A stretch of DNA of 64,000 nt from Escherichia coli (GTDB lineage: Bacteria; Pseudomonadota; Gammaproteobacteria; Enterobacterales; Enterobacteriaceae): assembly GCF_017348835.2 (NCBI RefSeq), contig NZ_CP071375.1; one strand, 5' to 3'. This document shows, piece by piece, positions 30,001-42,000 of the stretch (its first letter is position 1; the number at the start of each line of letters is the position of its first letter). The position numbers are program-made.

Positions 30001-33000
30001 ATTCGCTGCCAACATGCCGAACAGACTGCACAAAATGCGCCATTAAACCTGCAAACGCTGGAAGCTATCAGCGAATCTGTCCTGCAAGATGTCGCCCCGC
30101 GTTCTTCATGGCGGGCCAGTAAAGAGTTTCGTCTGCATCTCATCCAGACGATGACCAAAAAAGTGATTAGCGAAGCCGTCGCCGCGGCGGGGGGAAAATT
30201 GCAATGAATCACAGCGAAACAATTACCATCGAATGCACCATTAACGGGATGCCTTTTCAGCTTCATGCCGCACCAGGCACGCCGCTCTCGGAATTACTCC
30301 GCGAACAAGGACTGCTAAGTGTCAAACAAGGGTGCTGCGTGGGTGAATGTGGTGCCTGTACGGTGCTGGTCGACGGCACAGCAATAGACAGTTGCTTATA
30401 CCTTGCCGCCTGGGCTGAAGGAAAAGAGATCCGCACGCTTGAAGGTGAAGCGAAAGGCGGAAAACTTTCTCATGTTCAGCAGGCTTATGCGAAATCCGGC
30501 GCAGTGCAGTGCGGGTTTTGTACGCCTGGCCTGATTATGGCTACCACGGCAATGCTGGCGAAACCACGCGAGAAGCCATTAACCATTACGGAAATTCGTC
30601 GCGGACTGGCGGGAAATCTTTGTCGCTGCACGGGGTATCAGATGATTGTAAATACAGTTCTGGATTGCGAGAAAACGAAGTAAAAGGATATCCGGCCTGA
30701 ATTCAGGCCGGGTTCGCTGAGGTTATGTGTTTAACAACTCATATTTCTTAATCTTGCGATAGAGCGTAGCAATGCCAATGCCCAGTTCATCAGCAACTTG
30801 CTTCTTGCTGTTATGACGTGAAAGCGCCTCGCGGATCATTTGCTTTTCCATCTCCTCCAGCGCCGTGCCGCCCGCATCATCGAGTGACAGGTGCGCCTCA
30901 GTGACCTCTGTTACATCACTTTGCTCCGTTGTGCCATTATTCAGCAGATTTGGTGGCAATAGCGTGCTGTCGATAACTTCACCTGAAGGAACAACGTTAA
31001 CCAGATATTCCATCAAATTGCTTAACTCGCGCAGGTTTCCGGGCCAACGATGCTTACGCAATATTTCGACGACATCGGGAGCAATACCAGGATAAACCGA
31101 TCCCAGACGACGGGTATGCAGATGTAAAAAGTAATGCACCAGTAGTTCAATATCTTCCTGACGTTCACGCAGCGGTGGCAGAGTTATCGGGATAACATTA
31201 AGTCGGTAGAAGAGATCTTCGCGGAATTTACCTTCGGCAATGAACTGGGCCAAATTCTGGTTAGTTGCAGAAATGATGCGAATGTCGACTTGTATTGGGC
31301 TACTGGCACCAATCGGCAGAATTTCACGTGCCTCAATAGCGCGCAGTAATTTAGCCTGCAACATTAATGGCATATCACCTATTTCATCGAGAAACAGCGT
31401 GCCCGTATTCGCCGCCTGAATCAACCCTGTTTTACCGTTGGCAGAAGCGCCAGTAAATGCGCCTTTAACATAACCGAACAGTTCGCTCTCCAGAAGCTGC
31501 TCCGGAATCGCGGCACAGTTGATAGCAATAAAGGGTTTATTCCGTCTTCCGCTCAACTTATGGATTGCACGGGCGACAACTTCTTTACCCGTGCCGCTTT
31601 CACCAACCACCATAACGCTGGATGGGCTGGGTGCAATACGGCTAATGAGTCGTTTTAATTGCCGCATAACACGGCACTCGCCAACCAATTGTTCAATATG
31701 CGGTTCATCAGGTGCATTTGCTACAGAAAAACTGGTATGCGATTGGTGAAACGCCATTAAAAATAATTGTCGGCCCTGAATGTTATGCAATTGACCAATG
31801 ATTAATTCACTTTTATCGTCCCACGAAACAATATGCTGCATATGTCCATGGGTAAAATTACTCTCAAATGTTAATGGTCTGAAACGGATAGGTTTCCCAA
31901 TAATATTATTTTGCACAACACCAAGTGTTTTTAAGGCAGTCTGATTAACAAACTGAACCCGATTTTCGTCATCAACAACTAATACACCCTGATCCATATT
32001 ATCGATCATGGTCGCGAATATTTTACTGATGTTATCTCCTGGCCCCTGATCCTCCAGAAGTTTCGAAACAAAAATGGTGGATATATGGCGAACATAATCA
32101 GAAAATTCGCGTAAATTATCACTGATATGCTCTTGTTGCTCGTGGGTAACGGCAATCAAACTTATCACCCCAACACAACGATCCTGTAAAATGACAGGCG
32201 TACCCAGAAATGCTTTTTCGCGGCAATTTTCTTTACTATCGCAACCTTCGCAAAGGGGATCGAAGCGAGACTGTGTCACAACTTTTTCAGTTTTCGTTTC
32301 CAGGACGTGGCGGAGCAGGCGTGAGTTGCCGCTCAACTGGCGACCAAGAAACTTCCCATACGCGCCCGTTCCGGCGACGCGACACAAGTTTTCATCAACG
32401 ATCTCAACCTCAAGCTGCAAAACGCTGGCAAGCATTCTGGCAAAACGCTGAATTGTCGGTTGAATTTGCATCAATACTGACTGCGTAGTAGCAAGCTCCA
32501 TAGCTTTACCTTCCAGACTTACTTAAAAGTCGATCATTGAAGACGTTGATGGTTCACAGATCATGATGATATTAACTCAGGCGAAATTGGCTTTGATAAA
32601 AACATAAGATTTTTATCACTTTCTAATGAAATTATGGAAGAGATATCACATTTCTATATCAATATGAGAATTACGGCGGTGAGTTTATCAAACTGACGAG
32701 GGATAGCCTGCCCCTTTATCTTATTTCTGATACTTAGCAGCAAATAAATAACGCAATAAAAAAAGCCAAACGTTTTCGTATTTTACAAACAACCGGAAGC
32801 TGGCATCAATTTGTGATCAACCCCACACATTATCCGTCAAATTAGTCTTTTGCAGCCCCGTGGATAATTCTGGCACACTTATTGTTAGTCCCAGGTATAG
32901 CTGTGAAAACCACCAATCACTTTGGCAAGTCACAGTGAAATAAACCACTTTGCCTGTCATTCCACTACCGGGACTTTATGATGAAAACTGTTAATGAGCT

Positions 33001-39000: not shown

Positions 39001-42000
39001 TGCCGCCTCGTTTGCTCGCTCTCGCGCAGGTCGTGAAGCACTGATTACCGTATTGAGCAAAGCGAAAGAAGGGATTGAAGGCAAAACAGGAACGGTGATT
39101 TGTCAGTAATTTAAAGGCCGGGTGGGTAATACCATCCGGCCAAAGATTGTCAAGTAAGTGCGCTTTGTTGATGCCGGATGCGGCGCGAGCGCCTTATCCG
39201 TCCTACAAAACATCGCAAATTCAATAGATTGCAATGCACTTGTAGGCCTGATAAGCGTAGCGCATCAGGCAATTTGGCGTTTGTCATCAGTCTCAGGCCG
39301 GGTGAGTAATACCATCCGGCCATTTTCATTTAAGCCACTTCCAGCACTTCTTTTGTCGCTTTCACGCCCTGATGCATCAACATCATTAACGCCTCAAGTA
39401 CGCCGCCGCCAATCGCCCGGGCTTTATCAGAAACGCTGGTGAAATCAGCGGTTTCACCACGAGGATCGATATCACCAATTTTAAAACCACCAACCACTGC
39501 CAAGCCGTCGTTCAACAAGCCACGCACCATCCCCGTCAACGGTGCTTTAATTTCATGCTCACCAATCCAGGCAATCACATCGCCCTCTTTCACCAGATCG
39601 CCTAATTTCACGTTGGATCGCATAATGCCTGCAGCAGGAGCACGGATCACCCGTCGGGTGGTATGCCCCATAATATTGCCAGGAACACCGGTATTCTCCT
39701 GCGCACAACCAGAGTAAATCACCTGACCGAGCCAGTGCCCGCGATTTGTTTCAATTACCGCATGACAATCCTTCCCAGCAGTAAAGCCCGGCCCAAGCGC
39801 GATTGTTACTGGTGCCATATCTGCCCGCGTTCCCAAATTCTGTTTCGCCAGAATAGCGTCCACCACGCAAAGCGGTTTCAGTTCATCAAGCAATGAACAG
39901 GCGGGATCTACCATCACAGGGATGAATCCGCGTTCGGTAAGTTTCATCGCTTCCGCAGAGCTGGTTGCCAGGCGAGCAGTGACGCCTTCGACCGTCATTT
40001 CGCCATCGAACACGGCCTGGGCAAACGCCACGGTACAACGAATCACTGTCGGTTTTTCCACTTCCAGCATGATCACTTTAAAACCCGCATGATACAGACG
40101 TAGCGCCACACCACTGGCGATATCTCCCGCACCGCGAATCACCACCAGCTGGTGTCCGGAAGGATGAGAAGGTTTCATCATCAGCCCACCCGGCGCGTTA
40201 TTTTTCACCTGTAATATTTCTGCCAGCACGCTGATGGCGATCTCCTGCGGCGTTTCCGCACCTATGTTGTAACCAACGGGCGCATGTAAACGGGCAATAT
40301 GTTCTTCAGCCACGCCTTTCTCACGCAATTGACGCAGGAAAAGCTGAACCTTGCGACGACTTGCCAGCAACCCCAGCCATGCAATGGGCTGTTCAATGAG
40401 TTTGTCGAGGGCTTCACGATCCTGATTATTCGTGGCAATCAGGACAAAATTATCAGGGCGAATATCCAGTGCTTCCACTGCCGCACCAAACGACTCAGCA
40501 TGGAGAAGCGTGGTTGATGGTGGGAATAGTTCAGGATTGAGGCTTTCGCGATAAATATCGGCAACGGCAATATCAAATCCTAATAGCGCCGCACTCTGGG
40601 CTATCGCCCGGTTGACATGCCCCGCGCCAATCAACACCAGACGTGGACGCATACCATGGACGCTGATAAATACTGACATTGCACCTCCACAATCTGACCC
40701 GACAGCATCCGCACCGTTACGAGCCATACGTCCATGGAATAATCGCGGCTTACGTTCCTGCAATGCCTGAAGCGACTCTTCAATCACCTTCCGCTCAACC
40801 ATTCCGCCACCAATTGTACCGACGATAGAACCATCAGCGCGCACTAACATTTGTGCAGAATGGCGGGGAGTCGAGCCTCGGCTATCAACAATTTGCGCCA
40901 TCGCAAACGGACAATTTTGCTCTTCGAGTTTTGCAGCCTCTGTGAAAATATTCATACCAACCTCAATGGATATCCTTTCAGTAACCCGGAATACCCGGGC
41001 CGCTAATTCACAAATCTGCGCGCGATTGCAGGATGTTCTTGTATATCGCCCAGCCAGATTGCCTCTACGTCATGTTGTTGCAGCGGTTGAAGGAGCTCGC
41101 TTTGTGCAATCGCATTCTCACATTGAGAAAAACGGTTAATGAACCAGACTCGCCGACAACCTTGCGGTACTTTTTTAAACGCCCCCTGAGGGTGGCGAAC
41201 CAGCGCAACGAGATCGCTCAGTTGCAAGGTTGCATCAGGTGTTAACCCGGTAATATCAGCAAACTGCGACCAGCGATGGACATTTTCTGTGCTCACTTTC
41301 GCGCCCAAAGTATGTCCTCCCATCACAGCAATCACGCAGCAACTGCTTTTGGGTATGCAAGGTTCGTGCTCATCAGGCGCTTTTAACGGCATTCCACGCG
41401 AGCCATCTGCTTCAATGAGAATTACGTCACACTCTGGTCGTTGCACCAGTGCATCAATCGCTTCTGGCGTAAATCCCTGCACTTTTCCCTGGTTCGCTTT
41501 CCAGCTGTGAAAACAAAATGAAATGGGGGATGTAAGAGACGCATGAGGAAGCATGGCGGGATCACGACAGAAAACCACGGGCCAGTGAGACGTTGGCATA
41601 AACATATGTGTCGTCGTCGTGATTAACACACGCCTGCCGCTAGCCTGGAGCAGTTCTGCCAGCCAAAAAAGCAAGCTGGTTTTCCCCCCTGCACCAACAA
41701 CAGAAATCACAGTGGGACGTTTCTGCGCACCTAAATCAATGAATAATGCCGATGGGTCAACTATACTTTTCACGAGTCTTTATGACCTCTCTGGGATAAA
41801 TTATCCCCAACTTAATGCATCAGGATGTAACGCAATTATCAGGCGTTATTAGCCCCTATAAATAATGGAACCACTATGTCAGCCATCGACTGTATAATTA
41901 CCGCTGCCGGATTATCATCAAGAATGGGGCAATGGAAAATGATGTTACCCTGGCAACAGGGAACAATTCTTGATACAAGTATCAAAAATGCGTTGCAGTT

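Follow-up and report, generated by a model that had tools for sequence, protein, structure and literature searches.

The ygeV/ygeWXY-hyuA-yqeA locus of Escherichia coli, lower half of the anaerobic urate pathway, and a shared palindrome as candidate operator of the sigma54 activator YgeV

We analysed a stretch of 64,000 nt from the Escherichia coli contig NZ_CP071375.1 (the window, on whose numbering all coordinates are given), in which open reading frame (ORF) calling recovered six intact genes between 30723 and 39109: ygeV on the minus strand and, divergent from it across a spacer of 476 bp, ygeW, ygeX/dpaL, ygeY, hyuA and yqeA/arcC (Table 1). This region is very probably the E. coli ygeV/ygeWXY-hyuA-yqeA locus, which forms the lower half of the anaerobic urate pathway, including the regulation by YgeV that we propose for it. 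The pathway was already published in 2025 and we add nothing new on its enzymes, but its regulation was called poorly understood in the two papers describing it (Li et al., Life Metab, PMC12507026; Liu et al., bioRxiv 10.1101/2025.04.24.650524). The new element here is a map of palindromes and sigma54 promoters that constitutes a concrete predicted operator set for YgeV. About a third of human urate is removed by gut bacteria through this pathway, which is also being built into probiotics meant to counter gout; the operator set has a bearing on how strains differ in their consumption of urate and on lifting the repression of the pathway in such probiotics.

The gene order ygeV / ygeW-yqeA is genuine and no chance ORF pattern. 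The stretch 30723-39109 matches E. coli PE164 with 100% identity; among 5426 complete E. coli genomes, 5158 contain at least 80% of it. The RefSeq gene names agree with the ygeV/ygeWXY-hyuA-yqeA assignment, and the succession ygeW, ygeX, ygeY, hyuA, yqeA is that of the characterised E. coli urate-degradation locus. An earlier note on this DNA had described ygeV as divergent from these five genes and had pointed to an STRTR motif in YgeW; ORFs, RefSeq, NCBIfam and Pfam all bear out the arrangement, and the motif lies at residues 71-75, accompanied by the other carbamoyl-phosphate-site motifs HPTQ (165) and HCLP (329). Enzyme families were judged by NCBIfam equivalog models against their curated cut-offs (given in brackets). 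YgeW reached 825 bits (453) with the model for the knotted carbamoyltransferase YgeW, YgeX 650 bits (532) with diaminopropionate ammonia-lyase, YgeY 722 bits (321) with the YgeY M20 hydrolase, HyuA 672 bits (393) with D-hydantoinase/dihydropyrimidinase, and YqeA, encoded in the same direction and cluster as ygeW, 385.6 bits (358.25) with the arcC carbamate kinase model TIGR00746. With the ornithine transcarbamylase model YgeW scored only 133 bits (281), and the acetylornithine model gave about the same score. YgeW also matched the structure PDB 3Q98 over all 396 residues (E = 5.9e-270).

The chemistry of the anaerobic reductive (2,8-dioxopurine or 'yanthine') degradation of uric acid by this E. 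coli cluster comes from two independent studies, one in which the whole pathway was rebuilt stepwise with E. coli enzymes (Li et al., PMC12507026) and one combining reconstitution with mutant metabolomics in E. coli and C. sporogenes (Liu et al., 10.1101/2025.04.24.650524); it has also been summarised independently (PMC12990295). XdhD-YgfM reduces urate to 2,8-dioxopurine, which is dearomatised and opened in its six-membered ring by YgfK and SsnA to yield ureidomethylhydantoin; HyuA opens the hydantoin to 2,3-diureidopropionate, from which YgeW, with inorganic phosphate, forms a mono-ureido-diaminopropionate and carbamoyl phosphate, and YgeY hydrolyses the other ureido group to leave 2,3-diaminopropionate (PMC12507026; 10.1101/2025.04.24.650524). 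YgeX finally converts the latter to pyruvate and ammonia (PMC12507026). The carbamoyl phosphate is used by YqeA for substrate-level ATP synthesis, its phosphate passing to ADP. E. coli YgeW and YqeA, supplied with 2,3-diureidopropionate, Mg and ADP, produced ATP in vitro, a step that Liu et al. themselves liken to the arginine deiminase pathway (10.1101/2025.04.24.650524). The earlier note had thus been right in expecting a transcarbamylase that runs phosphorolytically and is paired with a carbamate kinase for ATP (10.1101/2025.04.24.650524; PMC12507026), and equally in expecting a purine-linked, sigma54-controlled catabolic module. Its statement that the native substrate of YgeW is unknown is outdated, the substrate being 2,3-diureidopropionate, and its candidates, oxalurate and carbamoyl amino acids in general, are not those that were found (PMC12507026; 10.1101/2025.04.24.650524).

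This also bears on a different assignment of the module, according to which it would degrade allantoin-derived oxalurate or generic N-carbamoyl amino acids, with YgeW acting as an oxamate- or amino-acid-transcarbamylase that feeds carbamate kinase. The transcarbamylase and carbamate kinase logic would be identical, the gene context is purine-related, and a 2013 bioinformatic study had associated the cluster with some unknown route of purine or pyrimidine catabolism. We nevertheless hold this assignment to be highly improbable and already largely refuted, given the substrate obtained for YgeW by mutant metabolomics and reconstitution (PMC12507026; 10.1101/2025.04.24.650524) and given that its neighbours, a hydantoinase and a diaminopropionate ammonia-lyase, suit a C3 diamino backbone and not oxalurate. 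There is likewise only a very slight chance that the genes form a stand-alone module for the detoxification of D-hydantoins or N-carbamoyl-D-amino acids and of diaminopropionate, unrelated to urate. Legacy RefSeq names (D-phenylhydantoinase, diaminopropionate ammonia-lyase) point that way, as do in vitro activities of this kind attributed to HyuA and YgeX in papers cited by PMC12507026. Yet the locus sits among xanthine dehydrogenases and purine/urate transporters, is co-modulated with them and has the same layout of sigma54 promoter and palindrome; moreover, pathway intermediates build up in the matching mutants, and the conversion of urate to pyruvate is lost in ygeX, ygeY or hyuA mutants (10.1101/2025.04.24.650524).

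The system closest to the one in the window is the 2,8-dioxopurine urate cluster of E. coli and gut Firmicutes, which is identical in species and genes (PMC12507026; 10.1101/2025.04.24.650524), while the sigma54/YgeV cis-elements reported here are not described in the 2025 papers. The arginine deiminase pathway (ArcB and ArcC) and its agmatine/putrescine variant share with it the phosphorolysis of a ureido compound, the formation of ATP by carbamate kinase and the STRTR/HPxQ/HxLP site, but the substrate of YgeW is 2,3-diureidopropionate instead of citrulline or carbamoylputrescine, and YgeW belongs to a separate, knotted clade. Reductive dearomatisation, ring opening by a cyclic amidohydrolase and ureido cleavage recur in the reductive pyrimidine pathway PydA/PydB/PydC (PMC12507026); the urate route differs from it in acting on a purine, with two ring openings and two ureido cleavages, one of which conserves energy via carbamoyl phosphate.

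With regard to its extent, the genes that the earlier note had assigned to the module stand, but its limits at 30723 and 39109 do not: the functional unit is larger, extending from xdhABC to uacT and covering roughly 26.8-59.5 kb of the window. Close by (42776-59531) are the genes of the upper pathway, ygfK, ssnA and ygfM-xdhD, and the urate/xanthine transporters. The whole purine block has a G+C content of 50.5%, compared with 36.6% for a type III secretion island occupying the window's first 26 kb.

No sigma54 promoter works without an enhancer-binding protein, and the locus encodes just one, YgeV. Chromatin immunoprecipitation sequencing (ChIP-seq) of sigma54 had located sites before xdhA, ygeW, ygfK and ygfT (Bonocora 2015), and all four motifs are present verbatim in the window (Table 1). 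The ygeW promoter (TGGCAC-N5-TTGTT) is kept in Enterobacter sp. Bisph1, TTGT included, and in genomic systematic evolution of ligands by exponential enrichment (gSELEX) an RpoN peak was obtained within the ygeV/ygeW spacer. A scan of the whole window for the sigma54 consensus with 2 mismatches stayed at chance level (40 matches, 37.6 expected), and only intergenic matches coinciding with the published ChIP-seq sites were retained from it. The published YgeV iModulon includes ygeWXY-hyuA, co-modulated with neighbours in the purine locus, as well as uacT, and expression of ygfT is reportedly lower in a ygeV mutant.

The ygeV-ygeW spacer further contains a CRP-like site (Table 1), which fits the reported repression of the pathway by glucose as well as the description by Li et al. 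of a native Crp site in this spacer, which they replaced (PMC12507026).

A palindrome shared by the promoter regions was discovered through k-mers common to the spacers, a repeat search on the spacer having missed it for being too short. The 12-mer TATCAATATGAG has exactly three copies in the window, each upstream of a sigma54 promoter of the cluster. The pattern TATCA-N3-TGA(T/G)A is matched exactly at four distinct sites in the 64 kb, where 0.28 strand-matches would be expected, and three of the four (at 32657, 42506 and 57876) lie in upstream regions of sigma54 promoters. The site before ygeW is preceded by a TATCAC half-site (32644-32649), and the site before ygfK together with its flanks agrees in 18 of 19 bases with a DioR site of C. 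botulinum. DioR is a clostridial sigma54 activator with predicted sites TTATCA-N3-TGATAA and a regulon of dpaL, ygeW-ygfK-ssnA-ygeY and xdh, the function of which was listed as 'Unknown' in 2019 (Nie et al. 2019, PMC6615313, supplement). As in E. coli, an enhancer-binding protein of the same family adjoins the dpaL, ygeW-ygfK-ssnA-ygeY and xdh genes there; that reconstruction, however, spanned Clostridiales only (PMC6615313). In E. coli, one half of the site often reads TGAGA. A full-text literature search with an 11-mer returned no relevant paper.

The same combination recurs in other genomes. In Enterobacter sp. Bisph1 the YgeV orthologue (69% identity) is likewise divergent from ygeWXY-hyuA-yqeA, the 13-mer TATCAAAATGATA is present exactly twice in 21.7 kb, once in the ygeV-ygeW spacer and once upstream of ygfK, and the conserved islands in an alignment of the two spacers are the palindrome block, the CRP-like site and the sigma54 promoter. 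Full-length homologues with 36-39% identity were found in a Clostridium metagenome-assembled genome (MAG), next to xdhABC/ygeY, and in Sedimentibacter, next to ygeX-ygeW-ygeY...yqeA-ssnA. In each of these two loci there are four different palindromes without a mismatch (0.3 and 0.16 strand matches expected, 6 and 8 observed), most of them 120-290 bp upstream of near-consensus sigma54 promoters, and the helix-turn-helix (HTH) segment LGIGIATLYRK is identical in the YgeV proteins of E. coli, Enterobacter, Clostridium and Sedimentibacter, all of which are palindrome carriers. Orthologue sampling was thin: the scan of genome contigs returned at least 599 relatives, swamped by generic AAA+ proteins, with about eight full-length homologues among the matches listed.

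The shared palindrome, its recurrence across species and the match to the DioR site support direct control of the whole purine cluster by YgeV, and the most economical reading of these sequences would extend the palindrome from DioR to E. coli YgeV, which would be the DioR orthologue and directly activate all four sigma54 promoters. Transcription of the ygeW operon would start at the sigma54 promoter 32870-32886, activated by YgeV bound at TATCA-N3-TGA(T/G)A palindromes 100-300 bp upstream, with CRP probably adding catabolite control. Since the same layout of palindrome and sigma54 promoter precedes xdhABC, ygfK-ssnA-ygfM-xdhD and ygfT, YgeV would coordinate the entire cluster. The earlier note had named a lack of co-regulation by YgeV as the outcome that would speak against its reading; sigma54 ChIP-seq at four promoters, the YgeV iModulon with ygeWXY-hyuA and the shared palindrome all went the other way.

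YgeV itself shows the domains of a sigma54 activator in Pfam (Sigma54_activat PF00158, 2e-70; AAA lid; HTH_8; PAS), with a Walker A motif GESGTGKE at 300 and GAFTGA at 347. The Pfam scan gave no Response_reg match that would indicate a receiver domain, although one paper labels YgeV an orphan response regulator. An AlphaFold model of residues 1-275 (predicted local distance difference test score 74.7) matches GAF-PAS sensors such as DhaR(N) (PDB 4LRX), so that YgeV would sense its signal via this N-terminal module and not via phosphorylation. The GAF-like part contains a CxxCx5C triad (C84, C87, C93) that is kept in 7 of 9 homologues.

Several observations weigh against the picture of a urate locus under YgeV control. 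The ygeW promoter has a non-consensus -12 element (GT) and a low ChIP-seq score, yqeA is missing from the published gene list of the YgeV iModulon, and a terminator-like hairpin after ygeY means that hyuA-yqeA may be only partly co-transcribed. The activity of the iModulon peaks under ethanol stress in baeR/cpxR knockouts. On the biochemical side the two papers disagree on the regiochemistry of YgeW, a point listed as open in a commentary (PMC12990295). Furthermore, ygeV is strongly induced by indole, affects LEE (locus of enterocyte effacement) expression and has been described as the virulence regulator IsrR. YgeV might accordingly be mainly an indole-responsive virulence regulator, with the enzymes driven by CRP or other factors and the palindrome bound by a different protein; the CRP-like site and the repression by glucose could be accommodated in this way. 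We judge this to be improbable, as the sigma54 promoters need an enhancer-binding protein and YgeV is at hand, as the YgeV homologues of Enterobacter and Firmicutes adjoin the same pathway genes with the palindrome assigned to DioR (PMC6615313), and as ygfT expression falls in the ygeV mutant. The IsrR role and that of an activator of the urate operons are compatible and not mutually exclusive.

Published hints on the signal of YgeV are mutually inconsistent, comprising urate, for which inducibility of the cluster was reported (PMC12990295), indole and ethanol stress. It is tempting to go further and view YgeV/DioR as a sensor of purine intermediates in which the CxxCx5C triad holds a metal or iron-sulphur centre, and which combines a ligand derived from urate with a signal of redox state, anaerobiosis or selenium/molybdenum cofactor and, via TATCA-N3-TGATA, serves the entire urate cluster of Proteobacteria and Firmicutes as its single master activator; this wider proposal is speculative, and we rather doubt that it will hold in full.

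The two studies differ on the ureido group taken off by YgeW: Li et al. give albizziin as the product, i.e. 2-ureido cleavage (PMC12507026), whereas Liu et al. report 3-amino-2-ureidopropanoate, i.e. 3-ureido cleavage (10.1101/2025.04.24.650524). YgeW reportedly has a common ancestor with N-acetyl- and N-succinyl-ornithine transcarbamylases, and the pair of N-acetylornithine transcarbamylase and ArgE in arginine synthesis of the Xanthomonas type offers a parallel: YgeY is an N-alpha-deacylase of the ArgE/DapE type, and 2,3-diureidopropionate resembles N-acetylcitrulline in combining an N-alpha-acyl with a side-chain ureido group. The urate module differs in being catabolic, with a C3, D-configured backbone and a carbamoyl group as the N-alpha substituent. 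By analogy, the homology would be a hint in favour of 3-ureido cleavage. However, YgeY is reported to convert albizziin (PMC12507026), so the analogy does not settle the question, and homology was dropped as a decisive answer.

GC-rich hairpins are found at three junctions of the operon, after ygeW, ygeX and ygeY (Table 1). Enterobacter sp. Bisph1 has hairpins of unrelated sequence at these three junctions too, which suggests selected RNA structures that serve in processing, in attenuation as partial terminators, or in stabilising the message. Generic scans for sigma70 promoters and terminators were at chance level (14 against 15.8 expected and 19 against 14.3 expected, respectively), and only individual hairpins were used from them.

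Table 1. Genes, promoters, candidate operator sites and hairpins of the purine block (window numbering)
Feature	Position	Strand	Description
palindromes, two, 1 mismatch each	26818-26830, 26839-26851		21 bp apart; the -24 GG of the xdhA promoter lies 127 and 106 bp downstream of their centres
sigma54 promoter of xdhABC	26949-26965	+	CTGGCGTAAATCTTGCC; canonical GG/GC; ChIP-seq
xdhABC	27021-30683	+	xanthine dehydrogenase, supplies urate to the pathway; member of the same regulon
ygeV (also isrR)	30723-32501	-	sigma54-dependent bacterial enhancer-binding protein, 592 aa; GAF-like, PAS, AAA+ and Fis-type HTH
distal candidate palindrome, 1 mismatch	32559-32571		GATCATGATGATA; within an island of sequence that is conserved in Enterobacter sp. 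Bisph1
candidate YgeV/DioR upstream activating sequence	32657-32669		TATCAATATGAGA; centre 209 bp upstream of the -24 GG of the ygeW promoter
CRP-like site	32812-32827		ygeV-ygeW spacer; TGTGATCAACCCCACA; conserved as GTGATCCTTATCACA in Enterobacter sp. Bisph1 (L002)
sigma54 promoter of ygeW	32870-32886	+	CTGGCACACTTATTGTT; -24 GG, -12 is GT, not GC; identical to the Bonocora 2015 site
ygeW	32978-34168	+	knotted catabolic carbamoyltransferase; RefSeq start is the second ATG, 32981
GC-rich intercistronic hairpin after ygeW	34175-34196	+	
ygeX/dpaL	34226-35422	+	pyridoxal phosphate-dependent 2,3-diaminopropionate ammonia-lyase; yields pyruvate + 2 NH3
GC-rich hairpin after ygeX	35438-35460		
ygeY	35480-36691	+	M20 (ArgE/DapE-type) amidohydrolase; takes off the remaining ureido group to give diaminopropionate
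GC-rich hairpin and T-run after ygeY	36709-36728		
hyuA	36744-38129	+	D-hydantoinase-type cyclic amidohydrolase; ureidomethylhydantoin to 2,3-diureidopropionate; mechanical ORF start TTG 36732
yqeA/arcC	38177-39109	+	carbamate kinase; carbamoyl phosphate + ADP to ATP + NH3 + CO2
yqeB, yqeC, mocA	39330-42454		cofactor genes
perfect palindrome	42506-42518		TATCATAATGATA; centre 177 bp upstream of the -24 GG of the ygfK promoter
sigma54 promoter of ygfK-ssnA-ygfM-xdhD	42687-42703	+	GTGGTGCGATTGTTGCT; canonical GG/GC; ChIP-seq
ygfK-ssnA-ygfM-xdhD	42776-50902	+	upper pathway half, from urate via 2,8-dioxopurine and the dihydro form to ureidomethylhydantoin
sigma54 site of ygfT	57694-57710	-	TATGCCCGTTTATTGCA; ChIP-seq
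palindrome	57876-57888		TATCAATATGAGA; ygfT-uacT spacer; upstream of the sigma54 site of ygfT by about 174 bp and of TGGCACTCCACGAGCA by about 120 bp
xanQ, guaD, ghxQ, ygfS, ygfT, then uacT	to 59531 (end of uacT)		further genes of the purine block

Some further sequences within the cluster deserve mention. A sigma54-like element, TGGCACTCCACGAGCA, is located at 57999-58014, 69 bp upstream of uacT, and is not among the quoted ChIP-seq sites. In the ygeV-ygeW spacer, AGCCAAACGTTTTCGT at 32764-32779 resembles the PurR operator (core CAAACGTTT); there are only two occurrences of AAACGTTT in the window, and the segment is missing from the spacer of Enterobacter sp. Bisph1. A perfect palindrome, TATCATCTTGATA, lies inside the coding sequence of ygeX (34502-34514). 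Enterobacter sp. Bisph1 does not share it; it may have arisen by chance or represent an internal site specific to E. coli. Between the convergent genes yqeA and yqeB, two near-identical hairpins of 26 nt, GGCCGGGTG(G/A)GTAATACCATCCGGCC, at 39116-39141 and 39296-39321, flank sequences that resemble repetitive extragenic palindromic (REP) elements, and it looks as if the insertion of a REP or bacterial interspersed mosaic element (BIME) had duplicated a terminator hairpin.

A YgeV paralogue of Citrobacter werkmanii (38% identity; locus L004, 7207-11743) is divergent from a ygeX-like diaminopropionate ammonia-lyase gene and a gene for a distant M20 hydrolase. Its HTH reads GISIATLYRK, and the locus is without ygeW, hyuA or the TATCA-N3-TGATA palindrome. 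We made no use of this locus, which may belong to a separate regulon for the utilisation of diaminopropionate.

Outside the purine block, the window is occupied up to about position 25,600 by the ETT2 type III secretion island (36.6% G+C), in which the sctQ- and sctN-like genes are frameshifted and sctC is interrupted by an IS1 element, and which also carries ygeH, ygeG, a toxin gene of the GhoT/OrtT family and a GH15 glycosidase gene. It is followed by a tRNA-Gly gene on the minus strand (25698-25768), the sole match of an Rfam scan of the locus, which detected no other RNA family. Beyond uacT, from about 59,500 to 64,000, we find idi, lysS, prfB with its programmed frameshift, recJ and the tiny annotated ORFs yqfG and yqfH.

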